Positions 4,492 through 47,178 of a DNA stretch of 64,000 bases are shown piece after piece. The stretch comes from Chitinophagales bacterium (lineage in GTDB: Bacteria; Bacteroidota; Bacteroidia; Chitinophagales; JADJOU01). The notes under the pieces were generated by a model that was not told where the DNA came from, did no database searches, and saw only the letters and a program-made list of their open reading frames with translations. Made by a program: the position numbers and the translations under genes. The stretch is from positions 172,414-236,413 of the forward strand of contig JAEUUY010000026.1 in assembly GCA_016787225.1 (NCBI GenBank), in the 5' to 3' direction. Every line of letters starts with the position of its first letter. Within the stretch, counting starts at the first letter, position 1.

Positions 4492-5442
4492 TTACAATAC
4501 CGCCTTGGCGATATTGATGACACCATCCGATTTACTCATAGTATAGTAATGAAGCGAGGGTACACCAGCAGCTTTTAATTCTTTACTCTGCATGATACAC
4601 CATTCTTCTCCTACTTTTTTGACATCTGCTTTGGTTTTACATTTTTCTACTTCTTTGGTCAATTCGTCGGGAATCTCCAAGAAAAATCTCGATGGAATAG
4701 ACTTCAATTGATACTTAGCGTCAATTGGCTTCAATCCTGGTATGATAGGCACATGGATACCTTCTTTTCTGCATCGGGCTACAAAATCAAAATACTTTTT
4801 ATTATCAAAAAACATCTGTGTGATAATATAGTCTGCACCGAGATCTACTTTATTTTTTAACCACTTGAGATCCGTGTTCATATTCGGAGCTTCGAAGTGT
4901 TTTTCAGGATAACCAGCTACTCCTATGCAAAAATCTGTTTCCATCTCATTGAGTGTTTCCTCGTGTAGAAATTTGCCTCTATTCATATTGGATACTTGTT
5001 CCACTAATTCACTGGCAAATTTATGCTGATTGGTTTTACCGATTTGCAGGCTATTCTTTTCATCGCCTTTCAAAACCATGACATTTTCTATACCTTGATA
5101 GCAAAGGGAGAAGAGCGCATCTTCTGTCTCTTCTTTACTGAACCCTACACAAACAAGATGTGGCACAGTCTCTACATTATACTTGTACGAAATCGCCGCA
5201 CAAATTCCTACCGTACCTGGTCTCGGTCTAAGTGGCGCCTCTTCTATCAAGCCATCAGGTCTGCGCTTATAAATCATTTCTTCAGGGTGATAGGTAACGT
5301 CTACAAAGGCTGGATTAAACTCCATCAAAGGATTCAACACATCGAAAAGATCATTGATTTTTTTGCCTTTCTGAGGTGGTAAAATTTCGATTGAAAAAAG
5401 GGTTTTTCCCTTGGCTGCCGCTAATTTATCTGTAACTTTCAT
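4492..5442 (-). CDS. metF: 5,10-methylenetetrahydrofolate reductase
   Basis: VAGYPEKHFEA, ITQMFFDNKKYFDF, IIPGLKP and a HYYTMSK C-terminal pattern match the MetF family. Confidence 0.8.
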   Translation of the reverse strand: MKVTDKLAAAKGKTLFSIEILPPQKGKKINDLFDVLNPLMEFNPAFVDVTYHPEEMIYKRRPDGLIEEAPLRPRPGTVGICAAISYKYNVETVPHLVCVGFSKEETEDALFSLCYQGIENVMVLKGDEKNSLQIGKTNQHKFASELVEQVSNMNRGKFLHEETLNEMETDFCIGVAGYPEKHFEAPNMNTDLKWLKNKVDLGADYIITQMFFDNKKYFDFVARCRKEGIHVPIIPGLKPIDAKYQLKSIPSRFFLEIPDELTKEVEKCKTKADVKKVGEEWCIMQSKELKAAGVPSLHYYTMSKSDGVINIAKAVL

Positions 5443-5516: not shown

Positions 5517-7355
5517 TTAAGTAGCATTCAACTTATCAAGAACAAAATACATATCCAATTTTAGTCCGTTTTTCACCTCGATGACACCTCTTTTCTCGCA
5601 TTTGAAATAAGGTTCAATATAGTTAAAGGTTGATTGGCTTATATTTATTTTACCAGGAGAACTGCTCGACTCCATTCTTGCGGCAACATTCACAGTATCA
5701 CCCCATATATCATAAGCGTATTTATGAGTACCCACAACTCCTGAGACGATACTGCCTGAATGAATACCTATACGAAACTCAAATGCATACCCAAATTTTT
5801 GCTTGACTACTGCATGCGACTCCGTAACGAACTGAATGATATCATGAGCTGCCGAAACCAGAGACCATGCATGATTTGGAGAATTATTCAACCCGCTAAC
5901 ACATAGATAGGCATCGCCAATGGTTTTTATCTTTTCAATATCATTATAGTTTGAAACAATAGAATCAAATTTAGCAAAATAGAAGTCGAGAATATTGATA
6001 AGTATTTCAGGCTCTAGGCTAGTCGCCAAATTTGTAAATTCCTTGACATCGCAGAACATAACTGTCACAGCTTCGTGTCGCTGAGGAATAGCTTTGCCAT
6101 ACATTTTAAGTTGTTTTACAGTCTTAGCTGGTAGAATATTATGAATCAATGCTTCAGACTTTTGTCTTTCCCTTCTAATAAATATGGATAAAAATCCAAT
6201 AACTAGAAACAAGCCACCAAGCACCCCAGCAGCTATTATGGCCTTCTTGTTGTTTTCTTTTTGACGAACAATTGTATCATTGAGTTGTTTCCGCTCTATT
6301 TCATTCCTATATTTAGAATAGGTCAAAGCTATCTGAGAAGTAATATCCAAGCCTGTAGCTGCATCTTTCAATTCTTGAACCTCCAGTAAGTACTGATGTG
6401 CTTCTTTGATCTTGCCCATTTTGTAATAGATGTCATGTAATAACTGAGCAATAGCTATCTTGTTTCCAGCAATATCATTTGATCCTTTTGAGTTAGAATA
6501 TTGATAGGCCTTTAAACCGTAGTCAAGTGCCTGCGTCAATTTGTTCTCTAAATAGTTGATTTTTGAATACAACGTATAAGCAACGGCAATAGCTGCTGGT
6601 TCATTCCTTGTTTTGTAGTAATTCAAGGATTTAGCTAATAAATTCTCTGCTTTTTTATATTCTTGCTTATTCACAAGCACCTTAGCTATTCCCTGTTCTA
6701 TTTCATGCTCTCTATCCGAGTTAGTATTTTTTTTAACTAAATCTAAAGCAAAGAGAAAATAACGCATTGCTGAATCATATTGTTTTAATTCATAATAACT
6801 CAAACCGCTTAAATATAATGGCACACTACGAAATGATTCCTCGCCTTTCCACCTATTTTTAATTGCTATCTGAAAATATTGAATGGCATCATCATACTTA
6901 TGATTGGCGTAGAAAATAATTCCGAGATAGTTATAAGACTTGGAGATATATTCTTTATTCCCAATTATTTCTGCATATTTCAATGATTCAAAAAAGAATT
7001 TAACAGCCCGGACATCATCCTTTTTCCATACATGTTCTATCTTCCCCAGGCGATAATAAGACATTAATAAACCGTTATAGTCTTTTTTTGATTTAGAATA
7101 TTCTATTAAGTCTAATAAAATTTTCTCTCCTAGGGCGATAGAATCAAATGATTCAGCATAATAAGTATCGTATAAGTCAAGACTATGAATGATAAAATTA
7201 TCTTTTTCTTTTACCGCTGTCTTATTTCTATCTATTTCTATATTTCCATAGCTAGATTGAAATGACAATAATATAACTATTGGAAGATAAATCATAAGAT
7301 TTCGATGCATGAATCTGAGTCTAAAGTATAGAGATAGGTAAATTTCCGTTACCAA
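5517..7355 (-). CDS. TPR-repeat sensor protein with one TM helix and a C-terminal class III adenylate/guanylate cyclase domain. True start is probably the MHRNLMIYLPIV signal peptide near 7310.
   Basis: Multiple TPR-like repeats (YYxxG/LGxIxxxxG), TM segment AIIAAGVLGGLFLVIGFL, then cyclase motifs VTVMFCDVKEFT and KTIGDAYLCVSGL. Confidence 0.8.
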   Translation of the reverse strand: MVTEIYLSLYFRLRFMHRNLMIYLPIVILLSFQSSYGNIEIDRNKTAVKEKDNFIIHSLDLYDTYYAESFDSIALGEKILLDLIEYSKSKKDYNGLLMSYYRLGKIEHVWKKDDVRAVKFFFESLKYAEIIGNKEYISKSYNYLGIIFYANHKYDDAIQYFQIAIKNRWKGEESFRSVPLYLSGLSYYELKQYDSAMRYFLFALDLVKKNTNSDREHEIEQGIAKVLVNKQEYKKAENLLAKSLNYYKTRNEPAAIAVAYTLYSKINYLENKLTQALDYGLKAYQYSNSKGSNDIAGNKIAIAQLLHDIYYKMGKIKEAHQYLLEVQELKDAATGLDITSQIALTYSKYRNEIERKQLNDTIVRQKENNKKAIIAAGVLGGLFLVIGFLSIFIRRERQKSEALIHNILPAKTVKQLKMYGKAIPQRHEAVTVMFCDVKEFTNLATSLEPEILINILDFYFAKFDSIVSNYNDIEKIKTIGDAYLCVSGLNNSPNHAWSLVSAAHDIIQFVTESHAVVKQKFGYAFEFRIGIHSGSIVSGVVGTHKYAYDIWGDTVNVAARMESSSSPGKINISQSTFNYIEPYFKCEKRGVIEVKNGLKLDMYFVLDKLNAT

Positions 7356-15521: not shown

Positions 15522-15821
15522 AATACTCAGCGGATGGATATAATTCGATCCTAGGTATTTATATTAACCTTATTGAAAGACATTACAAAATATAATGCCG
15601 ATCTTGAATTTTCTTAGTGAGGAACGAACTTAGAAATATTCGGTTCGGTATAACATATTTATACGTATATAACGACATAAATAAAAATAATACTATTAAA
15701 AAATATAATGAATTCGCAAACTGGAATATATGCTAAAAGTGCAGCAATCTTAGATTTAAAAATTAATTTACTAAACCAAAATTAATTTTGTAAAGCTGCG
15801 AATATTTAAGAGTTATCAACA

Positions 15822-16484
15822 ATGTTAAGCGAAAATAAAACTTACTTTTTGTTGTTAATAATTGCTTTCTTAAGTTGTGATCAAAATTGCATAAAAGATA
15901 GCAAAGTACTTAACGGAAAAGATCCAAAATCAGTGCAATACGAATGCGAAATAGATACTTCTGTTATAAAAGAAGATGACAATTTTTATCAAGTTATTAA
16001 ATTATCTGACACAAGTAGCTATTTAAAATGGGGAAACAAAGAAACTACATTCTATAGTAAAACTGAAATTGACAATTTTTATTTAGAAAAAGAAAGACTT
16101 CATTTTCAATGGATAAACAAAAAATTTATTTGTTTAGGAAGAAGCAGTGGAAGTGATATATGGTTAAATATTATTCTCCCATTAAAAGAAGATGCAAAAC
16201 CTAAAATTTATGAAAATGCCTTAGCATTTGACAAAGAAAATGGTCTTGTTATTTGTGAAGGATTTATTCACAAAGAAGCCCCATTAAAAGCAGAAAACAT
16301 TTATACTGGAGAAACGGAAATTCTAGGCAAAAACTGGACAAAATGTGATGCATGTTCTTTTTATCATTATTGTATCGATAGTATTAGTATAAAAAATAGA
16401 GAACTCTATGTAAAATGGGCAACACCTCATAAACTCGTAGAAAAACCAAAGTTTGAAACTAAAAGAGTAAAGTTAAAAATTTAG
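15822..16484 (+). CDS. Hypothetical lipoprotein (AT-rich ORFan cassette gene A)
   Basis: Lipobox-like LLLIIAFLSC; very AT-rich coding sequence; followed immediately by the AGATAACTG repeat element. Confidence 0.5.
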   Translation: MLSENKTYFLLLIIAFLSCDQNCIKDSKVLNGKDPKSVQYECEIDTSVIKEDDNFYQVIKLSDTSSYLKWGNKETTFYSKTEIDNFYLEKERLHFQWINKKFICLGRSSGSDIWLNIILPLKEDAKPKIYENALAFDKENGLVICEGFIHKEAPLKAENIYTGETEILGKNWTKCDACSFYHYCIDSISIKNRELYVKWATPHKLVEKPKFETKRVKLKI

Positions 16485-16671
16485 ACACAGCAGATAACTG
16501 CTGGTTCTCTAACAGCGAAGATGTATGAATCAGTCGCTCTAATAGAAGGACGACAAATTAGTTATTTACTATTCTTGAAATTATACGAAATAAAATCTGA
16601 CCTTTTCATTCCTAATAAGTTTATATTTGGTGTAAAAGAGAGCGTTATATTCTAATTTAATCGAAGACAGA

Positions 16672-17322
16672 GTGAAAATAGAAAGACCATTATCTGACAA
16701 GGAAATCAAAATTTTAAAACAAGACTTAAAACGAATTGACAAGCGAAAGTCTTTTCAAATTAGGGTTCTCGTTGTTTGGATACTTCTTGCAGTTATTATA
16801 GGGACATTTGTTTACTATAGACTTGAAATAACTAATGAAATATACCTATTAATTGGAACAGTTGTAATTTACATATTGATAGGCATTTGGAGTTTTATGG
16901 AAAACTATTTGAAAGAAAAGAAAGCAAGTAAGAATATTGATTTCGTTTTTGAGACAAACAAAGTAAAGTCAATTAAGGTGATGTCAAATGATTATATTGA
17001 ATTATCAGAAGTGGAAGACGAAGGGATAAATTACTTATTTCAAATTAATGACAATAAAATACTTTCTTTTGGTGGTCAGGACTTTTATACAACAACAAAC
17101 TTTCCGTCTGACAATTTTGAAATAGCAGTTTGTAACGGTCAACAGGGCGAAGTAGTGCTATTAGAAATCTACAATTACGGAAAGAAGATAAAACCGAAGA
17201 GGAAAATAACTGGAAAACAGAAATGGGACTTGATAGGAAGTGCTAATTATCCTGACCCAGAAAAGTTTGCTATTATAGACGGACAACTTGACAATATTGA
17301 AGCAATTATACGTGGAAAATAG
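16672..17322 (+). CDS. Hypothetical membrane protein (2 TM)
   Basis: Two hydrophobic helices after a Lys-rich N-terminus; no known domain. Confidence 0.45.
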   Translation: MKIERPLSDKEIKILKQDLKRIDKRKSFQIRVLVVWILLAVIIGTFVYYRLEITNEIYLLIGTVVIYILIGIWSFMENYLKEKKASKNIDFVFETNKVKSIKVMSNDYIELSEVEDEGINYLFQINDNKILSFGGQDFYTTTNFPSDNFEIAVCNGQQGEVVLLEIYNYGKKIKPKRKITGKQKWDLIGSANYPDPEKFAIIDGQLDNIEAIIRGK

Positions 17323-17373
17323 AATAACAGCACTTACCCAAAAATTGGAAATTCTTGCTTCTATAACAATGAA

Positions 17374-18096
17374 GTGCTTCGAAATCGGCACCTTCGGGTA
17401 ACTTTAAACGGTTATTATAATATAATGAGCAGTAGTGCACTCAAAGAAACGGATCCTTTAGATATTGACGAAGCAATAGAATGTATTGAAAAATCCTTCG
17501 GCATTCAGTTTATTGAAAGTGATTTGAAAACTATTAAGACGTTTGGCGAATTCTGCGAGTTAGTCAATAAAAAAACTAATTCTCACGATATGCAAGATTG
17601 TACAACTCAACAAACTTTTTATAAACTAAGACATGCATGTGAACTACTTCCGCTTAATTTATCTGAAACTATAAGTCCTAAAACAGAGTTAAAAATAGTA
17701 TTTCCTAAAAACCAGAGAAAAGACTTAATAAATAAATTTCAAGAAAAATTAGGACTGAATCTTGACATTTTACACCCTCCTGAGTATCTAGAAGTTGCTT
17801 TACTGATTTCAATTCTCGTTGGATTCGTTTTGTTATTTTTTACCTTTAAAATAGGTTTAGCCATATTTCTAAGTTCTTATATTGGCTTGTACATAGCGAA
17901 AAAACTAGGAAACAATTTTAGAATAGTGACCTTCGGTGATTTAGCGAACAAAGTAAAAAATGAAAATTACACCAGGTTTCGTAGCACTCCTCACACAACT
18001 AACAAACATGAAGTGCAGGACACAGTGAAACAAATATTTTGTACTAAATTAGGACTAAAAAGTGAGGATCTTAACGACGAAGCAAGTTTCGTTTAA
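17374..18096 (+). CDS. Hypothetical membrane protein with ACP-like N- and C-terminal segments (Pro at the carrier-Ser position)
   Basis: N-terminus DPLDIDEAIECIEKSFGIQF aligns to the ACP [20 protein letters not shown]. C-terminus VKQIFCTKLGLKSEDLNDEASFV aligns to the ACP helix I [23 protein letters not shown]. Central TM hairpin. Confidence 0.45.
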   Translation: MLRNRHLRVTLNGYYNIMSSSALKETDPLDIDEAIECIEKSFGIQFIESDLKTIKTFGEFCELVNKKTNSHDMQDCTTQQTFYKLRHACELLPLNLSETISPKTELKIVFPKNQRKDLINKFQEKLGLNLDILHPPEYLEVALLISILVGFVLLFFTFKIGLAIFLSSYIGLYIAKKLGNNFRIVTFGDLANKVKNENYTRFRSTPHTTNKHEVQDTVKQIFCTKLGLKSEDLNDEASFV

Positions 18097-18331
18097 TAAT
18101 ACAGCTAATTTTTAAAATGAGTTACACCATTTTAAATCCGCTAGAGATATAAACATAATGCCTAGGAAATATTTGATAGTCTTCTGAATGAGAGAGTAAC
18201 GGCGTTAAAATAAATTGCAGGATGGTAGAGAAAGATTTATCTTTGACAAAAAGTAGTCTAGCTAAGCCGCTCATTCCTTTGTTCAGAAGGCTACCGTGCG
18301 TTAGCATCAATTTTAAAGCGACACATCTCAA

Positions 18332-19243
18332 ATGAAAAAAAGACTTTCACTATTGTTCCTATTTTTGGGACAAATCTCATTTGGACAGACAGAAAAGCAT
18401 ATAAAAGTTCAAGGGACGAAATGTAGTATAATTCCCCCTAGTGGTTTTGCGACAGCGACAACTTTTAGCGGTTTTCAAAATACAGAAACAGGAGCTTCAA
18501 TAATGATTAATGAAATTCCAGGATCTTATCAATCTATAGTTGAAGGATTTACAGCGGAGGCCTTAAAATCAAAGGGTATGAAATTACTTACTAAACAAAT
18601 AATTGATTTTAATGGTTCAAAGGCTAATCTCCTTAGCCTTATACAAACTGCGTATGGGACAACTTATTTGAAGCAAATGTTAGTTTTTGGAGACACAATA
18701 GTTACCGTTTTAGTAAATGGAATTTATCCTGAAGCATCGAAAGACCTAGAACAAAAAATTAAAGACGCTATACTATCGACAGTATATAATAACTTACAAG
18801 ATGATAATCCAATTGAAGCTGCAACTTTTACAATAGACATCAAAGACACGGAATTCAAACTTATAAAGTACATGTCAGGTGGTTTGCTTTATTCGACAGA
18901 TGGGAAAATCCCAACTGAAAAACCTACATTGATTGTTGGGAATTCAATTGCAAAAGTTTCATCACAAAATTACAAGAAATATTCAGAGGAAAGACTTAGA
19001 AAACTACCTAGAGGCGAATTCAATGTAATCAAAGAAATCAATGAAGTAACTATAGATAATTTAAATGGCTTTGAAATTGTTGCTAATGGAAAAACTAAAG
19101 ACGAAAAAGTAGAATTGATTTATCAAGTAATGCTATTTAACGATAAAGGTGATTACTACATTATTGTTGGAAAGACTTCAGTTGACTTTGACAAATATTT
19201 GGAAAACTTCAAAAAGATAACAAAAACTTTCAAACGTAAGTAG
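18332..19243 (+). CDS. Hypothetical secreted protein
   Basis: Signal peptide MKKRLSLLFLFLGQISFGQ; 303 aa; no recognisable domain. Confidence 0.5.
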   Translation: MKKRLSLLFLFLGQISFGQTEKHIKVQGTKCSIIPPSGFATATTFSGFQNTETGASIMINEIPGSYQSIVEGFTAEALKSKGMKLLTKQIIDFNGSKANLLSLIQTAYGTTYLKQMLVFGDTIVTVLVNGIYPEASKDLEQKIKDAILSTVYNNLQDDNPIEAATFTIDIKDTEFKLIKYMSGGLLYSTDGKIPTEKPTLIVGNSIAKVSSQNYKKYSEERLRKLPRGEFNVIKEINEVTIDNLNGFEIVANGKTKDEKVELIYQVMLFNDKGDYYIIVGKTSVDFDKYLENFKKITKTFKRK

Positions 19244-19332
19244 ACAAAACTGCTACCATTATCAGTTTTGTAAAAGTTGGACAAATCAAATTGTCTACTT
19301 TCTCGTTCTGAGTACTAAAGCTAAGATGGTAT

Positions 19333-20758: not shown

Positions 20759-21658
20759 TTATGATTTAGGGTGAGATAATTTATGTATATGTTTTAATTT
20801 TTCAATGCTGTTATGAGTATACACTTGGGTAGAAGCCAAAGAGCTATGACCGAGCAATCCTTTGATAGCATTGAGTTCTGCTCCTTCATTAAGCAGGTGG
20901 GTAGCGAAGCTATGTCGCAGGCTATGTGGACCAATGCCTTTTTGAGCGGTTACTTCTCCCAAGTATTTTTTTATAGTTCTATATACAAAATTGGGGTATA
21001 ATTTCTTGCCATTGTCTAGTACAAATACACTTCCATTTTCAGCTATGATGTCTCGACTACAAATGGCTGATTTGTATTCGTTCAACAGTTGTATCATCTG
21101 TTTACTTAATGGCACTAAGCGTTGCTTTTTGCCTTTGCCTAATACTGAAATCTCTTTTTTATGAAAATCAATATGGTCCCATTGCATTTCTATGAGTTCG
21201 CTTCGTCGGATACCACATTGATAAAAGGTCATGAACATGGCATAGTCTCTGTGAGATTCAAAACTTTCATCTGCTTTATTGATTTCTAATTTGTCTTTGA
21301 CATCAACTAATTTATGTTCAGCGATATCCTTTGGCAATCGCTTAGGTGCTTTGGGTCTAATAATTTTAGAAGTAGGATTCAGCGCTACCGTCCCATTTTT
21401 CAATTGAAATTTATAAAATGATTTGAGGCAAGATATTTTGCGATTTACTGTGGTAGCTGCATCTTGCTTTTCTATAAGTGATATCGTCCATGAACGAATC
21501 ATACTCGCATTGACAGTCAATAAATCCGTATGCTGAAAGTTTGCTTCTATAAAGGAATAAAACTGATTTAAGTCTTGTTCATAAGCAAGAAGTGTATTCG
21601 ATGACAGTCTTTTTTCATACTGTATATAGTTCAAAAATCGCTTTCTCACATCATCCAT
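20759..21658 (-). CDS. Tyrosine site-specific recombinase, XerC/XerD family (housekeeping; xer next to hpf is typical Bacteroidetes synteny)
   Basis: C-terminal HSLRHSFATHLLNEGAELNAIKGLLGHSSLASTQVYTH (R-H-R-Y catalytic box). Confidence 0.85.
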   Translation of the reverse strand: MDDVRKRFLNYIQYEKRLSSNTLLAYEQDLNQFYSFIEANFQHTDLLTVNASMIRSWTISLIEKQDAATTVNRKISCLKSFYKFQLKNGTVALNPTSKIIRPKAPKRLPKDIAEHKLVDVKDKLEINKADESFESHRDYAMFMTFYQCGIRRSELIEMQWDHIDFHKKEISVLGKGKKQRLVPLSKQMIQLLNEYKSAICSRDIIAENGSVFVLDNGKKLYPNFVYRTIKKYLGEVTAQKGIGPHSLRHSFATHLLNEGAELNAIKGLLGHSSLASTQVYTHNSIEKLKHIHKLSHPKS

Positions 21659-29729: not shown

Positions 29730-30662
29730 GTGAATTTTAGTAAAAAAACTTGGGCATTAATTCTGACAACTGCAATATTAGCTTCAGCTATTACAATTTT
29801 CCAGACTGAATATTGGGGGAGTTATGGATTTGTAACTTTTTTATTTGTTCCCTTATTGATAGGTTTAATTCCGATTTATTTTCTAGATGAAAATGAACCT
29901 ATAAGAAAAAGTCAAGTTGTTATAATTGGGCTAACTACGCTTAGTATTTTTTCTATAATACTTGTTTTAATAGGAATTGAAGGAATGATTTGTATTGCAA
30001 TGGCTGCCCCAATCGGAACGATAATTACTTTGTTTGGAAGTTTTATAGCATACATTTTACGCAAGAATAGAAAAAAAGAAAAAGGATTAACTACTACACT
30101 TATAATGCTAACAACTTTGTCATTATTTTCATATGTAGACAAAAATTCAACACTAAGTCTAAATGAGGCAAAAACATCTATAGTAGTCGAAGCTAACATA
30201 AACACAGTTTGGAATAACGTTATAACATTTCCTAAGCTATCCGAACCTAAAGAATATCTTTTCAAAGCAGGTATTTCATACCCTATTGAAGCAACAATTG
30301 CAGGAAAAGGGAAAGGGGCAATTCGATATTGCAAGTTTAACACAGGTGACTTTATAGAACCTATTACTGAGTGGAACGAACCAAATCTCTTAGCTTTTAA
30401 TGTTGATCAACAACCTTTACCTATGAAAGAACTAAGCATGTATGATATTGACGCACCTCATTTACATGATTATTTCCTATCTAAAAAAGGTCAGTTTAAA
30501 TTAACTAAACTCTCGAATAACAGAACTCTTTTAGAGGGAACAACTTGGTATACGCATAATATAAGACCAGAATTTTATTGGAAACTTTGGAGCAACTATA
30601 TTATTCACAGAATACACTTAAGAGTCCTTGAAAATATAAAAAGCAATTCCGAAAAAAACTAG
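29730..30662 (+). CDS. Hypothetical membrane-anchored protein (4 TM plus a soluble C-terminal domain)
   Basis: N-terminal TM helices; C-terminal domain of unknown fold. Confidence 0.45.
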   Translation: MNFSKKTWALILTTAILASAITIFQTEYWGSYGFVTFLFVPLLIGLIPIYFLDENEPIRKSQVVIIGLTTLSIFSIILVLIGIEGMICIAMAAPIGTIITLFGSFIAYILRKNRKKEKGLTTTLIMLTTLSLFSYVDKNSTLSLNEAKTSIVVEANINTVWNNVITFPKLSEPKEYLFKAGISYPIEATIAGKGKGAIRYCKFNTGDFIEPITEWNEPNLLAFNVDQQPLPMKELSMYDIDAPHLHDYFLSKKGQFKLTKLSNNRTLLEGTTWYTHNIRPEFYWKLWSNYIIHRIHLRVLENIKSNSEKN

Positions 30663-30684
30663 ACAAGATAGCCTGAAAAAATTT

Positions 30685-30810
30685 ATACCGTAAACGTATT
30701 AGTAATAGTCCAATGACGCATGGCTCATTGCACTAAACAAATACAGCTACGGCATTTACCATAGCAAGGTTTTAAAATGGGTTGGACCATTTTAACACCG
30801 CTATTGGTAT
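30685..30810 (+). repeat. Copy 1 of a ~126 nt dispersed repeat (MITE/sRNA-like); internal hairpin AAAATGG-GTTGG-ACCATTTT
   Basis: ~94% identical over ~126 nt to 46910..47035 by hand alignment (8 mismatches). Confidence 0.8.
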
Positions 30811-33142: not shown

Positions 33143-33769
33143 GTTAGAAAAAATTTAATTGGTTAATAAAAAAGATTGGCAAAATGTTTTATACCGACGA
33201 TACATACTAAAAAGACGAATATAAAATTTCGTATCCTATGTATGTCGGCATTAAACCACAATATTTTTTGCCTAAATTTGATTTGTAAATGGTTTTACCT
33301 GAGTAACAGACCCTAAGTGTAAATCTTAAGAGGTAAAAATGTCTGTCGAATGTTCATAGCATGTAACAATTCGAATGCTAAAAATTAGGTTTTCTTGATG
33401 ACGTTAAATTTAATGAAAAGATTAACATAAGGTGATTTTGAAAAGTTCGAACAGTATGTACGAATTTACTAAATTTAACACCTTTAGCTTTATTTTATCA
33501 TATATAGTTCGTAGTACAAAACAAAGGAGTATTTAATACAACTTAAATAGCTAATCACCAAGAATATACACAAAATGCGAAAGTATCAATTATAAATATA
33601 TACACAAAATATGAAAGCGGTAAAATTTCTCTTTTTAGGATTTTATTTATTCATTATCTTTATCTTAAAATTAAAAACTTAAAATATACCGAAATTAGAA
33701 CTTTCGTATATTTGTCAATTGTATGCAAGCCTATTGACTACCACACTCCGACAAACAGGCAGACAAAAA

Positions 33770-34741
33770 CTAACCGATAAACAGCTGATTTGTGAAAAGA
33801 GAATGTGGAGCGGACACCAAATTAATATCAAACTTTAATGACGGCTCAATTCGGGAACTTGCATTGTGAATACGAAAAGAAATTTGCCAACCTTCATTCA
33901 AAGTGACCAACAAAGTTGTTTTCGAATTTTCTTGATAGACGACTTCAATTAAGCGACTTGGTAATTTCAGCTTTGGAACTTTTGCTTTTGGCTTGATATT
34001 TTCAAAAGGCAAATTCAAAGTTCCGTGTAAATTATATGCCTGAATTTCGACTTTATTACTGCCTTTTATGACTTTGTAGAAGTCTTGGTTTCCAATTAGA
34101 TATTCAATCAATTTTTCTGCAACAACACCAGTATTTTCAGCATCAAGACGCAACAACTCTTTTTTAAATGCATTTAAAATCGGGACATAAACAGACGTAT
34201 GATAATCTCCTAATGTATCCCATTTTTGAGTTGCCTTACTAGCGATTCTTAGCTTCGCTAAATTATCAAATACTGGCTTGACTTCATTGAAATATTCAAC
34301 CGAACAAGGAAAGCCCAACCACTTTTTACCAAAATCAATATCATTTGACAATCGAGAATGTTTAACGGCTCTATGATTATTTTTAGCAGAAATTCCAATC
34401 TCCCATTTCTGTAATGACCTAATCGCTAAAACATCACGAACATCGCCAGTTTGACCCACTTTATCAGACACGATTTCAAGTTGTAAAATATCTTTATCAC
34501 TTATTCCATTTGATAACCGCGGCTCAATATCAAGTAAAAAATTGACAGCAAAACTTGCTATCAAACTGTAATGACTTCTATCCTTTTCGCTAAAACTTAA
34601 AAAACATTTCAATGCAGTTTTGTAAGGGTCATTTTCAACAACCAAAACGGTTGTAAAGGCTTTCAGCCGTTCTAAAAACTCTTTCAATAACGCATATTCA
34701 AAGGCTTTTCCATTTATAGTTTGACTTGCAACTTTTGCCAT
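33770..34741 (-). CDS. Putative type II restriction endonuclease (cognate of the adjacent C5-MTase)
   Basis: 323 aa ORF whose ATG overlaps the MTase stop (TAATG) on the same strand; no recognisable motifs; assignment by context. Confidence 0.4.
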   Translation of the reverse strand: MAKVASQTINGKAFEYALLKEFLERLKAFTTVLVVENDPYKTALKCFLSFSEKDRSHYSLIASFAVNFLLDIEPRLSNGISDKDILQLEIVSDKVGQTGDVRDVLAIRSLQKWEIGISAKNNHRAVKHSRLSNDIDFGKKWLGFPCSVEYFNEVKPVFDNLAKLRIASKATQKWDTLGDYHTSVYVPILNAFKKELLRLDAENTGVVAEKLIEYLIGNQDFYKVIKGSNKVEIQAYNLHGTLNLPFENIKPKAKVPKLKLPSRLIEVVYQENSKTTLLVTLNEGWQISFRIHNASSRIEPSLKFDINLVSAPHSLFTNQLFIG

Positions 34742-35832
34742 TATGCTGTAATACTATTTACTATTTTATTCATTTTTTCACGGACAAGATTTCCATTAAG
34801 AGCATTTGCAAAACCATTAACAGCAATCTTTTTAGACGGCTTTATACTTTTTAAGTCGTCAAGAATTTTTCGTCCCAAAACTTCAGCCATCTTAACTGGG
34901 ACAGCATTCCCAATCATTTTATAACCAGCTACTACACTATTATAATGAAAAACAAAATCATCTGGAAAAGTTTGTATTCTGGCACATTCACGAACACTTA
35001 ACCTTCTATATAAACTTTCTTTTCCCTTTACAAACTCTCGAATATTTTGCTCAATAAATTTCATTTTTGGGGCTTGTGGGTGTAAAGGAGCGTGGCGACC
35101 ACCTGCTTGAATTGTAAAAGAAACTTCATCCCAAGACCTAACTCTATTTCTTGACATAAAAATAGACGAGAAACCACCAATCATATATTCGTGATTTGCG
35201 ACTTTACATTTATTTCCATTGGAATAATTACCTTCCTTTGCCGGCAAGACGTTATCTTTCAAATCGCTGATGACTTTATCAAGTGTTACTTTATTCCCAA
35301 GTGTTGTAGGTTTTGGAAACTCGAATTTTATTCCCAAGTCTTTTCTATAGCCAATAAAGAAAACACGTTTTCTATCTTGTGGGACACCATAATCCGAAAC
35401 ATTCAGTAACTCAAACGACAAATCATAACCAATGTCAGTAAACATTTGCTTTATGTTCGACAACGCTTCTTTGTGTGCAGGCAACAACATTCCCGACACA
35501 TTTTCAGCCAAGAAAAATTTCGGTTTTTTATCCGCAAGTATTCGCATAAACTCATAAAACAACTGACCCCTTTTATCAGCTATTCCACGTTTTGAACCTG
35601 CTTCTGACCAACTTTGACAAGGCGGACCCCCAATTATACCATCGCAATCAGGAACTTCACTTGACGGAATATCAACAATACTTCTTCTATCTAAGACAGT
35701 TTTTATATGGTTTTTCTCAAACGTCTCCCAAATTTCTTTATCGTATTCGTTTGCCCAAACGACATCAAAGCCAGCATTTTTAAAGCCTAAATCTAGACCG
35801 CCAGCACCTGCAAAAAATGAGACTATTTTCAT
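34741..35832 (-). CDS. DNA (cytosine-5)-methyltransferase, M.HaeIII-like
   Basis: Motif [13 protein letters not shown], motif [14 protein letters not shown], motif VI FLAENV, plus [33 protein letters not shown] and [11 protein letters not shown]. Strong resemblance to M.HaeIII (GGCC) from memory; not verified by search. Confidence 0.85.
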
Positions 35833-36080
35833 TTACAATTAACTTAAAGTTATGTTGACAAATTTAATTTATTTTGGCTAAATTTCGACCAGTAAAAATG
35901 AATAATTATCAACGGACGACAGAAAGGAGACCAGCTTATAACTGACAGTTTCGTGAAAGTGTGGGTGACGGAGTTCAAAAAATATGCATTATGGTTATGA
36001 AAGTTTGTATATTTGAGTAAAATTCAGTTTGGTTATGCCACACCTTCACGAAGCATGCCGGACGATAGCTGAGATTTATT

Positions 36081-36920
36081 ATGAAACAGCAGACCTTCAA
36101 ATTAGTATTTATTTTATTCCCATTTTTTCTAGGTTGTGGTAATGAAAAACCAAATTCCGAAAACGAGGAATCAATAAAAGCGATACAAACAGAAATTCCT
36201 CTGAGTGTAAAAGAAATGATTACTGAACCCGAAATTTTAAATTCAAATCTTGCAAAAGTTTTTAACCCAGACAGTATTGTAGGAGAAGAACAAATGATTA
36301 AAAGAAGTGTCCTTGGTTTTATAGGAAGTAACTTCCAAAGATTTGAAATTCATTTTACGTCGTTTGAAAAATCAAAAACAGACAACAGAACGTATTTTTT
36401 AAAAGGTAAAACAAGAGTAAAGAATAATATTTGTAATTTTACCGGTGAGTTGAAAATTTCAAACATTGAAATTGGCAAAGATTCCATTCGTCTTTTAGAT
36501 GAAATGGAATACTCAAAAAATCACACACTAATTACAATTACTTCAAAAATCATAATTAAAGAAAGTCCGAATGAAAAACATAGTGGTTACATTGAAGGAA
36601 CTTTATCTACAAGCGCGTTTGCTGACTCAACGAACGAAATTCATTATAACTCATTAGAATTCTTTTCTGATGGCTTCATCAACAATGCTTTTGAAGGCAA
36701 GTGGATTAAGTATAACTCAACCGAAACGAAAATCTGCAATTGGGGAGATTTTAGGATTCCAAAATCTGGTGATCTAGATATTGGGGCAGGTGAATTTAGC
36801 ATAAATGATAAGTATCTTAAAAACGGATGGGAAACATACCGATTACAATTCTATGTAGAGCCAAATAGTAAAGAAATGATAAATGCCCAGATAAGAGAAA
36901 ATGATAAATGGTGGGAATAA
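36081..36920 (+). CDS. Hypothetical lipoprotein (cassette-like ORFan)
   Basis: FILFPFFLGCGNE lipobox; flanked 5-prime and 3-prime by AGATAACTG-type repeat elements. Confidence 0.5.
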   Translation: MKQQTFKLVFILFPFFLGCGNEKPNSENEESIKAIQTEIPLSVKEMITEPEILNSNLAKVFNPDSIVGEEQMIKRSVLGFIGSNFQRFEIHFTSFEKSKTDNRTYFLKGKTRVKNNICNFTGELKISNIEIGKDSIRLLDEMEYSKNHTLITITSKIIIKESPNEKHSGYIEGTLSTSAFADSTNEIHYNSLEFFSDGFINNAFEGKWIKYNSTETKICNWGDFRIPKSGDLDIGAGEFSINDKYLKNGWETYRLQFYVEPNSKEMINAQIRENDKWWE

Positions 36921-37017
36921 AAAAACCTCAGATAACTGGCAGTTTGAAAAAATGCTTGGTGCAGTTTTTTATCGAAGTGTCTGAATTCTAATTATATTTG
37001 TATTTAAGCGAAAAGTC

Positions 37018-37848
37018 GTGCTTCCAAAAACACACTTCTTCAAGCTGCCGAAACGCTTTATCTACAAGCATTTGTGTAACCCCGAAAAAACTATGAATAA
37101 ACTAAAATCTCCAAAATATTTAAGTCTATCTATCGCTCTAATTGGAGTAGTAATTTTATGCTACTCTTTAACTCTTGATTTTTATACAGACCAAAAAGCT
37201 AAAGAAAAACTTGACTCAAGTGCAGAACTATCTACTGATGAAAACGTTTGGAAAGAAAAGTATTACAAAGAAGTAGCAAAACTAGAAACAAGCAAAAGAA
37301 AATTAATGGATATTGGAAGTGGTCTTACAATGTTTGGTTTATCATTACTTATATTCTTTATGCTTAAAAAGTCCGAAAGCATTAGCGATCTAAAATTCAT
37401 ACTAACGTTCTCAAAACTAAAAACTTTCATTCTTGCAAATCTAGTATGGAGTTTAATGCTTCCAGGAACATATTTCTACTATTATTTTCGCGGTATGAGA
37501 AATGATTATCCTTGGTTTGTAGACAGTATTGGCATTCCGATTATGTACCAAACAACAAGTATATTGATGGCATTTATTCCACTCAACATTGTCTTATTCA
37601 TTTCACTTTACAAAACCATACTGCCAACAAATTTGTTTAAAGAACTAACAGCAAAAAGCATATCAGAAAAAGTGTGGGAAGGCTTTTGGGCTTTATTACT
37701 CTTCATAAACATTATAGCATTGATAAGTTTCATTGCCGATGGAGACCATATTTCTATTCCGATAAACTTATTCTTTACATATATAATTCTAACATTAAGA
37801 GCAGGTAAAAAAAATTACTTTCAAATAAACAACAATGCCTGTAGATAA
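37018..37848 (+). CDS. Hypothetical polytopic membrane protein (cassette-like ORFan); true start probably MNKLKSPKYL near 37093
   Basis: Several TM helices; its stop codon TAA lies inside the repeat AGATAACTGCTGGTTTGAAG. Confidence 0.5.
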   Translation: MLPKTHFFKLPKRFIYKHLCNPEKTMNKLKSPKYLSLSIALIGVVILCYSLTLDFYTDQKAKEKLDSSAELSTDENVWKEKYYKEVAKLETSKRKLMDIGSGLTMFGLSLLIFFMLKKSESISDLKFILTFSKLKTFILANLVWSLMLPGTYFYYYFRGMRNDYPWFVDSIGIPIMYQTTSILMAFIPLNIVLFISLYKTILPTNLFKELTAKSISEKVWEGFWALLLFINIIALISFIADGDHISIPINLFFTYIILTLRAGKKNYFQINNNACR

Positions 37849-38087
37849 CTGCTGGTTTGAAGAAAGTCGGGCGGTGTGCTTCAAATAAAATCATGTCTTT
37901 ATGTGAAACTTTATATTTTTGAATAATCGTTATCTATGTGCTTATTTTTGAGGTAATATAAGTTTTTAGACGAACTAAAAACCTAAGAACATAAAACTTG
38001 TAATTATGCAAGTTAAAAGCACCCAGATTAATAAGTGCCTTAAGATTCGTAAGTACAATTATCAATTAAAATTTTTAATATAAAAGC

Positions 38088-46753: not shown

Positions 46754-46909
46754 ATCAGTTATTTTTATTTCGACGCCAAAAGTACAAAGATAATTGAGTA
46801 AATTTTTTTTTATTAATTCCCTCTATGATAAGTCCCCAATAATATCATTCTTACTTTAGGGCTTGCTGAATAACGTCAAAACAGTTGAATGATATAGATT
46901 TATAAAGTA

Positions 46910-47035
46910 ATACCGTAAGCGTATTAGTAATAGTCCAATGTCGCATGGCTCATTGCACTAAACAAATACAGATACGGCATTTACCATAGCAAGGTTTTAA
47001 AATGGGTTGGAACATTTTAAAACTGCTATTGGCAT
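46910..47035 (+). repeat. Copy 2 of the ~126 nt dispersed repeat, embedded in a ~285 bp segment bounded by a perfect 16 bp inverted repeat
   Basis: Matches 30685..30810; flanked by GGGCTTGCTGAATAAC (46859-46874) and GTTATTCAGCAAGCCC (47159-47174). Confidence 0.8.
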
Positions 47036-47178
47036 AAGTATGCATTTTAACCCAAAAATATTTGACTACTCAGAAACACACCAACTACTTCGCCATCTGC
47101 ACCTCGCAGTATTATTATACAGCGTCGGCTTGATGGCTCGTATTTGGCGCATTTCTGAGTTATTCAGCAAGCCCTACT

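Follow-up and report, generated by a model that had tools for sequence, protein, structure and literature searches.

The locus examined here raises the question of whether the short element at 16485-16570, which directly follows a lipoprotein gene and part of which recurs at 37843, is a boundary element of mobile gene cassettes, as a preliminary description had proposed in linking a 15.5-19.3 kb block of ORFan genes to a cassette array at 36-38 kb. The window (the whole 64,000-nt stretch of DNA analysed) is an AT-rich chromosome segment (about 35% GC) of an uncultured Chitinophagales bacterium, whose DnaB shares 93-96% identity with the proteins encoded by metagenome-assembled genomes (MAGs) of Chitinophagales, Sphingobacteriales, and Saprospirales. 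A scan of the window returned no tRNA genes and no Rfam families. We consider it likely that the element is an attC-type recombination site forming the 3' boundary of an integron-type cassette, and that the copies in the window are probably relics. The preliminary reading was right at its core, on grounds different from those originally offered.

The element after the lipoprotein gene

Re-reading of the sequence showed that ACACAGCAGATAACTGCTGGTTCTC lies directly 3' of the TAG stop of the ORF at 15822-16484, that the 15-mer AGATAACTGCTGGTT occurs exactly at 16492 and, as its sole recurrence, at 37843 (both on the + strand, the latter copy overlapping the TAA stop of the preceding ORF), and that a CAGCAG-ATAA-CTGCTG hairpin is present at 16488-16503, all as originally described. 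The proposed inverse pairing of AGATAAC (16492-16498) with a downstream GTTATTT (16561-16567) was also borne out, with a complementarity of 6.5/7. These two boxes delimit a 76-nt attC-like site of the lipoprotein cassette, hereafter L1 (16492-16567, + strand), in which AGATAAC is R'' (inverse core) and GTTATTT is R' (core), with 69 nt from the former down to the latter. L1 folds as one imperfect hairpin closed by the R''/R' boxes.

The local CAGCAG/CTGCTG hairpin, which had been noted with the element, is not the relevant structure, as it is missing at 37843 and is not conserved in L086, a contig carrying a 76% identical orthologue of the lipoprotein gene. It was rejected as a functional unit or terminator, having no T-run and no call in a terminator scan. 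The stable hairpin right after the stop nevertheless provides one argument for a different reading, namely that the sites are ordinary intergenic modules (a terminator hairpin plus a Bacteroidota promoter) which were locally duplicated or arose convergently, with no site-specific recombination. TAnnTTTG promoter-like motifs are indeed present in the intergenic regions, and the long hairpins described below are thermodynamically weak; the hairpin itself, however, has the three shortcomings just given (no T-run, no terminator call, no retention in L086), and further evidence against these modules is given with the model matches and the junctions.

The argument that a 15-mer identity within 64 kb is not due to chance could not be sustained. 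The 15-mer was chosen post hoc from the window, so that any-versus-any comparison is the right null; under dinucleotide shuffling, this null gives 5.8 +/- 1.7 exact pairs, whereas the window has 11 that are in direct orientation and 15 nt or longer, 3 of which derive from a single true 132-nt repeat. An expectation of 0.16 applies to a 15-mer fixed beforehand, and this one was picked after the window had been read. Pure coincidence, with L1 unrelated to the sites at 36-38 kb, has to be weighed, since roughly six exact 15-mer pairs are expected per window and similarity between the copies at 16492 and 37843 does not extend past the 15 nt. Against it, in both copies the 15-mer lies a few nucleotides from where a long ORF stops, and on its coding strand (p~5e-4, estimated for any of the 11 pairs).

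When the match was relaxed, two extra copies of the core ATAACTGNNNGTT were found at 35938 and 36932, which brings the whole-window count to four versus 0.18 expected; every copy is intergenic and on the + strand. This count is partly circular, the pattern having been taken post hoc from these very sites. Two other copies that had been suggested were not upheld. At 30663-30684, where a "degraded copy" had been suspected, the sequence is AGATAGCC; an unrelated structured repeat of 132 nt comes next, and the model finds no match. The "weak copy" at 15720-15760 is unsupported, although an R'-like GTTATCA box is present at 15811-15817.

The 132-nt repeat occurs at 30679-30810 and 46904-47035 (93% identical) and forms two adjacent hairpins on the minus strand (z = -7.1 and -8.0). 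It contains no tRNA, has no credible Rfam match and no AAC...GTT ends, and in both instances is located downstream of genes on the minus strand; a small RNA or a REP-like element is a candidate identity. The second copy is held within a segment of ~316 nt bounded by a perfect 16-bp inverted repeat, GGGCTTGCTGAATAAC / GTTATTCAGCAAGCCC, at 46859-46874 and 47159-47174. This segment looks MITE-like, and since the pairing of the 16-bp repeat runs outward from AAC/GTT, it is not attC-like.

Three attC-like sites and two putative cassettes at 35.9-37.9 kb

The second locus comprises, in order, a minus-strand restriction-modification pair, site S0, the ORF at 36081-36920, site S1, a membrane-protein ORF, site S2, and an aldo/keto reductase gene. 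S0 (35936-36072, + strand) is a 137-nt attC-like site preceding cassette gene 1, with no co-oriented ORF upstream; its R'' reads TTATAAC and its R' is mutated to GATAGCT. Its arms (35950-35964 and 36038-36052), 15 nt long, 73 nt apart, and 93% complementary, are the best pair in the region. Cassette gene 1 (36081-36920, + strand) encodes a lipoprotein of a widespread uncharacterised family with more than 175 homologues across Bacteroidota and metagenomes, and cannot be called an ORFan.

S1 (36930-37063, + strand) is a 134-nt attC-like site with R'' AGATAAC and R' TTTATCT, the latter having lost its G. The arms of S1, GGCAGTTTGAAAAAATG and CACTTCTTCAAGCTGCC, pair at 15 of 17 positions with two A.C mismatches, which corresponds to the design of the metagenomic family described below, and when S1 is folded in isolation both the boxes and the arms pair. 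Cassette gene 2 (37093-37848, + strand) encodes a membrane protein of 251 aa. Its true start is the ATG at 37093 and not the mechanically assigned GTG at 37018, which falls inside S1; public gene calls include a product of 251 aa but none of 276 aa. S2 (37843-37876, + strand) consists of the 5' half of an attC site, R'' AGATAAC plus the 5' arm GTTTGAAGAAAGTCGGGCGG, with no complementary 3' arm following it. An isolated GTTATCT at 37929-37935 lies 86 nt from the AGATAAC of S2, not in attC geometry.

The restriction-modification pair adjoining the cassette cluster (33770-35832, minus strand) is of the HaeIII type and comprises a restriction endonuclease (Pfam RE_HaeIII, 331 bits) and a C5-methyltransferase (NCBIfam dcm, 267 bits). 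It is preceded by a 627-nt AT-rich gap (33143-33769), and could belong to the island of the cassettes or be itself a cassette in reverse orientation.

A metagenomic attC family and its covariance model

Scanning metagenomes with an alignment of the family of ORF 36081 yielded 80 loci (34-48% identity), approximately 30 of which carry an attC site straight after the stop, with a conserved AAACTGGTGCTAAC-N4-5-GTTTGGCAAAAGTGGCGG... sequence. Each of these sites is an imperfect hairpin of ~130 nt that opens with xGCTAAC and a short spacer, continues with a stem of ~18 bp around a variable centre, and, once the complementary arm and 4-5 nt of spacer have been passed, closes with GTTAGSx; R' is often GTTAGGC, a canonical GTTRRRY core. 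RNAalifold predicted no pairs on a MAFFT alignment of 11 sites, in which indels were misplaced, and it was replaced by a bootstrapped covariance model: a first model (R1) was built from 3 near-identical, trivially alignable sites, and from it a second (R2) based on 24 diverse sites (alignment A6). R2 contains metagenomic sites only, without any window sequence, and was run on the window with filters off. R1 was too specific and found nothing in the window.

AAC and GTT do not vary in any of the sites (24/24). Standard pairs occupy 95% of pair cells, a share that falls to 62% in shuffles and to 28-39% when the partners are slid, and double-compensated cells number 148 versus 40 expected. Free stem sequence combined with conserved structure and fixed AAC/GTT is the signature of attC. 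R2 detects 79 sites at E<0.01 in 635 kb of sequence, with primary hits all on the gene strand, in arrays of up to nine sites (L098), seven (L099), and six (L153, L162, and L163). In 21 of 24 sites (p 1e-4) the bottom strand has the greater stability, owing to a conserved A that stands opposite a conserved C in the top strand.

Two such A-opposite-C stem breaks are conserved in A6 (columns 32/191 and 22/200), and become G.T wobbles on the bottom strand. These pairs may serve as a strand-choice device, unlike the extrahelical bases of classical attC sites.

Matches to the model in the window

S1 is the top R2 match of the whole window on either strand, with 16.5 bits and a marginal E~0.09 (a rough calibration), or E 0.003 when the search is confined to the 2.2-kb region. 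S0 is matched over its full length (35936-36070) with 8.5 bits, equivalent to a non-significant E~7 window-wide and E 0.25 within the 2.2-kb region, and for both sites the ends given by R2 are those predicted by hand. In S2 and L1 the model matches the boxes only (3.2 and 1.2 bits, respectively), with ambiguous strand. Comparison of the first 37 nt of each site with an attC of L094, a metagenomic contig carrying a homologue of ORF 36081, gave 23/37 identities for S0 (p=0.001), 24/37 for S1 (p<=0.002), and 27/37 for S2, compared with the attC 5' end (p<0.0005; all relative to shuffles). Homology of these 5' halves to attC sites of unrelated metagenomes is not what intergenic modules of local or convergent origin would be expected to display. 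The 5' half of L1 has only marginal similarity to validated attC sites (p 0.02-0.08), which, together with its failure under the covariance model, favours coincidence for that site.

Searching the close relatives L004-L011 and the contigs L084-L086 with R2 returned no sites, save for a pair of fused boxes in L085. One further match in the window (29764-29827) lies inside the transmembrane coding region of ORF 29730 and was discarded as a false positive. A generic scan for AAC...GTT hairpins was likewise set aside as not discriminating in an AT-rich genome; it placed L1 fifth of 440, beside structures inside ordinary coding regions.

Cargo genes and the strain-variable block

The link between L1 and the attC family is made through its cargo gene. 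The lipoprotein gene (15822-16484, + strand; annotated JNL75_10145 in a MAG) encodes a rare, cysteine-rich protein of 220 aa that matches no Pfam or NCBIfam family and for which just 6 homologues were found. In L172, L173, and L170, attC sites with R2 scores of 21.8-54.6 bits flank homologues that are distant from the window protein (41-44% identity). Sites lie immediately upstream of the homologue in L172 (679-808, 54.6 bits) and L173 (171-302, 47.2 bits), upstream of it in L170 (5815-5986, 25.1 bits), and, in L173, again starting 8 nt past its stop (976-1107, 21.8 bits, E 0.002). The post-stop sequence AC.GC.G.TAAC.GC is invariant after the lipoprotein genes of the window, L086, L172, and L173 (41-76% identical homologues), and in L173 it constitutes the R'' end of the attC validated by R2. 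L1 thus appears to be joined to the attC family by the homology of its cargo gene and not by the covariance model. Given that the lipoprotein family is independently cassette-borne, with the same R'' context after the stop, and that both copies of the 15-mer sit at stops, we regard mere coincidence as very improbable.

The upstream attC of L173 is, moreover, nearly identical to the attC following the ORF 36081 homologue in L094, so that one array of L173 contains the site types of both window gene families. From these sequences, the two families appear to circulate in the same arrays. The proposal that one cassette family links both loci therefore holds insofar as homologues of the lipoprotein and of ORF 36081 occur in the same attC arrays, but within the 15.5-19.3 kb block cassette status could be demonstrated for the first of the four genes only.

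That block (15523-19330) is 3.8 kb in length, has a GC content of 0.29-0.33, and contains four + strand genes between a convergent dnaB and nitronate monooxygenase (NMO) gene. It is strain-variable: in the close relative L007 it is absent and dnaB abuts NMO (blastn), representing an empty site, and in L004 two other, unrelated genes follow dnaB. No attC-like site was detected after genes 2-4 of the block.

Right after the stop of the last of these genes lies a perfect 9-bp hairpin, ACAAAACTG-N10-CAGTTTTGT (19244-19271), whose ends are again ..AAC/GTT... A bidirectional terminator is one possible identity, and a collapsed site resembling the fused boxes of L085 is another.

Junctions and population variation

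Cassette insertion at attC-type sites would place the limits of homology between orthologous cassettes at the boxes. Four nucleotides before the lipoprotein ATG lies the R'-like box GTTATCA (15811-15817, + strand), the presumed left boundary of that cassette, whose counterpart in L086, GATATCA, stands at the same distance from the ATG. It is at this box that the window and L086 begin to match (GAGTTATCAACAATG versus GTGATATCAGCTATG), and the sequences upstream differ. The same was found upstream of ORF 36081, where identity between the window and L085, which carries an 87% orthologue, begins right after R' (GATAGCT|GAGATTTATTATG versus GTTATCT|GAGATTTTTATG) and the preceding attC sequence differs. 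Downstream of ORF 36081, identity extends through R''; in L085, R'' and R' are then almost fused, as AGATAAC-TGGAA-GTTATCGAC (the window R' being TTTATCTAC), and a different gene is next. A third orthologue context has yet another neighbour, and overall the 87-90% orthologues of ORF 36081 have different downstream genes.

As far as can be judged from these alignments, the junctions behave as a cassette model predicts. The expectation of the preliminary description, that genes delimited by the copies should differ between close relatives, is likewise confirmed by the empty site of L007, the other genes of L004, and the varied downstream genes of ORF 36081 orthologues. Because orthologue identity switches exactly at the boxes, and in view of the attC homology of the 5' halves and the defects of the local hairpin, we consider it very unlikely that the sites are ordinary terminator-promoter modules, and retain the attC-type reading.

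Public Logan contigs break at several of these positions. Three independent contigs with the lipoprotein gene (L001-L003) all begin at window base 15624, some 100 nt into the 3.8-kb block from its left end and ~200 nt before the lipoprotein gene, and this common start suggests an assembly-graph branch. The S2 arm at 37852-37876 is the 25-nt overlap of two contigs, one ending at 37876 and the next beginning at 37852, which makes it a branch node in 4 samples, and other contigs from several samples begin ~100 nt before ORF 36081 orthologues. Such breaks at the sites are suggestive, though no proof, of alternative contexts in natural populations.

Two other observations concern the relatives of ORF 36081. 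A "leader" of ~85 nt common to L085 and L086 was considered as a 5' UTR element, is absent from the window, and is now read as the 3' half of the preceding attC. In L084, near a 61% homologue of ORF 36081, a different ~70-nt repeat (TCGCTCGCGCA.CGCTC...GAATCTTAG...) follows two successive genes (~5262-5335 and 5775-5845); repeated promoter-like regions are found there too, and this repeat is not recognised by R2.

Recombinases

Three of the metagenomic arrays adjoin tyrosine recombinase genes, which lie upstream on the same strand in L098 and L140 and divergent from the first cassette in L094. These recombinases score 172-213 bits with the integron-integrase model (TIGR02249), above their XerC/XerD scores and below the cut-off of 265; that of L140 passes NF040815, "tyrosine recombinase/integron integrase". 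The L094 recombinase aligns with Vibrio IntI4 (2a3v) in two blocks, with ~43 residues of the IntI-specific insertion missing. Its nearest relatives are Ignavibacteria proteins of ~273 aa, followed at greater distance by proteins of Kapaibacteriales, Desulfobulbaceae, and Bacteroidia. By these comparisons, the metagenomic arrays are integron-type arrays of the FCB group, of mixed taxonomy, with non-canonical integrases.

No integrase is encoded within the 64-kb window, and no recombinase candidate was found in the relatives L004-L011. The sole tyrosine recombinase of the window (20759-21658) scores 286 bits as XerC versus 108 bits as integron integrase, and was rejected as the cassette recombinase, since it resembles XerC and is also found in synteny in L007, a relative without cassettes.

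Status of the sites in the window

The attributes commonly used to recognise attC sites are present in the window to differing degrees. AAC is found in all four sites, and the GTT of R' is lost in S0 (GATAGCT) and S1 (TTTATCT). Inverted repeats inside the boxes are present at lengths within the accepted range of ~57-141 nt (137, 134, and 76 nt for S0, S1, and L1, respectively), save for S2, which has no 3' arm. The sites lie 3' of co-oriented ORFs with variable neighbours, three of the four copies being at most 12 nt from the stop or overlapping it. The bottom-strand folding typical of attC is absent, the top strand being more stable in S0, S1, and L1. Under DNA parameters all four elements fold no better than shuffled sequences do (z -0.3 to -1.5); for L1, a z-score of -3.1 in a wider RNA window becomes -0.3 and -1.1 with DNA parameters at the exact ends. 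Placed on the same strand and in the space of 2 kb, S0, S1, and S2 have no intI nearby, and so qualify as a cluster of attC sites lacking an integrase (CALIN; at least two attC sites within 4 kb), conditional on S0 and S1 being attC. A complete integron, in which intI stands beside attI and an array, is not seen in the window.

By analogy with established integron biology and the metagenomic family, a functional site of ~130 nt would fold as single-stranded DNA, with its boxes paired, a short asymmetric spacer, a stem of ~18 bp, and a variable centre, and a tyrosine recombinase would cut within R' (G|TT), so that a circle composed of an ORF plus its attC could be excised or inserted. The three copies at 35.9-37.9 kb would then delimit two cassettes of a small integrase-less cluster (CALIN), and the fourth would be a solitary copy, located after the lipoprotein gene in the 3.8-kb strain-variable block. 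Past cassette insertion is the presumed route of arrival at both loci, and the copies are most likely its relics, at best mobilisable in trans.

Alternatively, the sites could be functional as a lineage-specific, AT-rich variant (AGATAAC/GTTATCT) used in trans by a short Xer-like or rAID-type recombinase encoded beyond the window, in which case the poor fit to the model would reflect divergence. The R'' box and spacer are common to all four copies, L085 retains a perfect AGATAAC-N5-GTTATC pair, and the IntI insertion is missing from the array-linked recombinases of relatives, which shows that sites of this kind are served by non-canonical enzymes; in addition, the Logan breaks at the S2 arm, before the lipoprotein gene, and before ORF 36081 orthologues suggest ongoing variation. 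The R' boxes of S0 and S1, however, have lost the G/TT cleavage context, S2 lacks its 3' arm, folding is at background level with the strand bias lost, and neither the window nor L004-L011 offers a recombinase candidate. We therefore regard functional sites as unlikely. The mutated R' boxes, the truncation of S2, the weak folds, the lost strand bias, the lack of an integrase, and the lack of sites after genes 2-4 of the 3.8-kb block favour relic sites.

Comparison with known systems

Both CALIN and solitary attC sites have an established place in the literature (Cury et al. 2016, PMC4889954; Neron et al. 2022, PMC9024848), where single attC sites have been discussed as being in part false positives or possible "genetic degradation of integron cassettes" (PMC4889954, PMC9024848). 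Integrons have been reported in Bacteroidota (PMC8618304), although complete integrons are almost absent from isolate genomes of this phylum and present in Chlorobi and Ignavibacteriae (PMC9024848). The window copies resemble CALIN and solitary attC sites in having ..AAC/GTT.. boxes (with the GTT lost in S0 and S1) and an imperfect dyad over 76-137 nt, in their position 3' of co-oriented, promoterless-looking ORFs with variable neighbours, and in the lack of an adjacent integrase. They differ in their boxes (AGATAAC/GTTATCT versus the RYYYAAC/GTTRRRY consensus), in their host (a Chitinophagales MAG), and in being degraded copies that fail or barely pass a custom family covariance model. What the window adds is a Chitinophagales genome with probable integron-type cassette remnants at two separate loci, in a phylum in which isolate surveys found almost none, and the identification of two uncharacterised families (the lipoprotein and the membrane protein) as putative mobile cassette cargo. 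Direct gains for the window itself are modest, namely a gene start corrected to 37093, recognised island boundaries, and a caution regarding 15-mer identities at chance level.

Vibrio VCR arrays consist of tens to hundreds of near-identical sites beside intIA. The window has four divergent copies and no integrase; as in VCR arrays, its sites share extended sequence (the R'' box, the spacer, and the start of the 5' arm) and not structure alone.

The rAID arrays of Bacteroidales provide a comparison within the same phylum. A tyrosine recombinase heads an array of short genes of low GC content in a common orientation, and the repeats between the genes have been called "reminiscent of integrons" (Ross et al., bioRxiv 10.1101/471110; PMC12247911); the arrays encode orphan immunity proteins, and the mechanism of their assembly is unsettled (bioRxiv 10.1101/471110; PMC12247911). 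The metagenomic arrays of L098 and L140 likewise have an Xer-like recombinase upstream on the same strand, and the window, judged against published descriptions of rAID, has co-oriented short low-GC genes and common intergenic motifs. The window differs in having no recombinase at its sites and in belonging to Chitinophagales and not Bacteroidales; no immunity domain was recognised in its cassette proteins, and it falls outside rAID as defined. The by-product of this analysis may matter more than the window itself, as a covariance model and ~80 FCB-group sites linked to recombinases without the IntI insertion bear on rAID assembly. Tentatively, and as a proposal that we hold to be possible though rather doubtful as a whole, environmental Bacteroidota and their FCB-group relatives may share a large pool of attC cassettes served by short (~273 aa) Xer-like recombinases that lack the IntI-specific domain, with the two conserved A.C mismatches (G.T on the bottom strand) setting strand choice in place of extrahelical bases and cassettes such as those of the window landing at secondary sites (e.g. 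dnaB/NMO), where they decay; such a pool would be the environmental counterpart, and offer a mechanistic explanation, of gut rAID.
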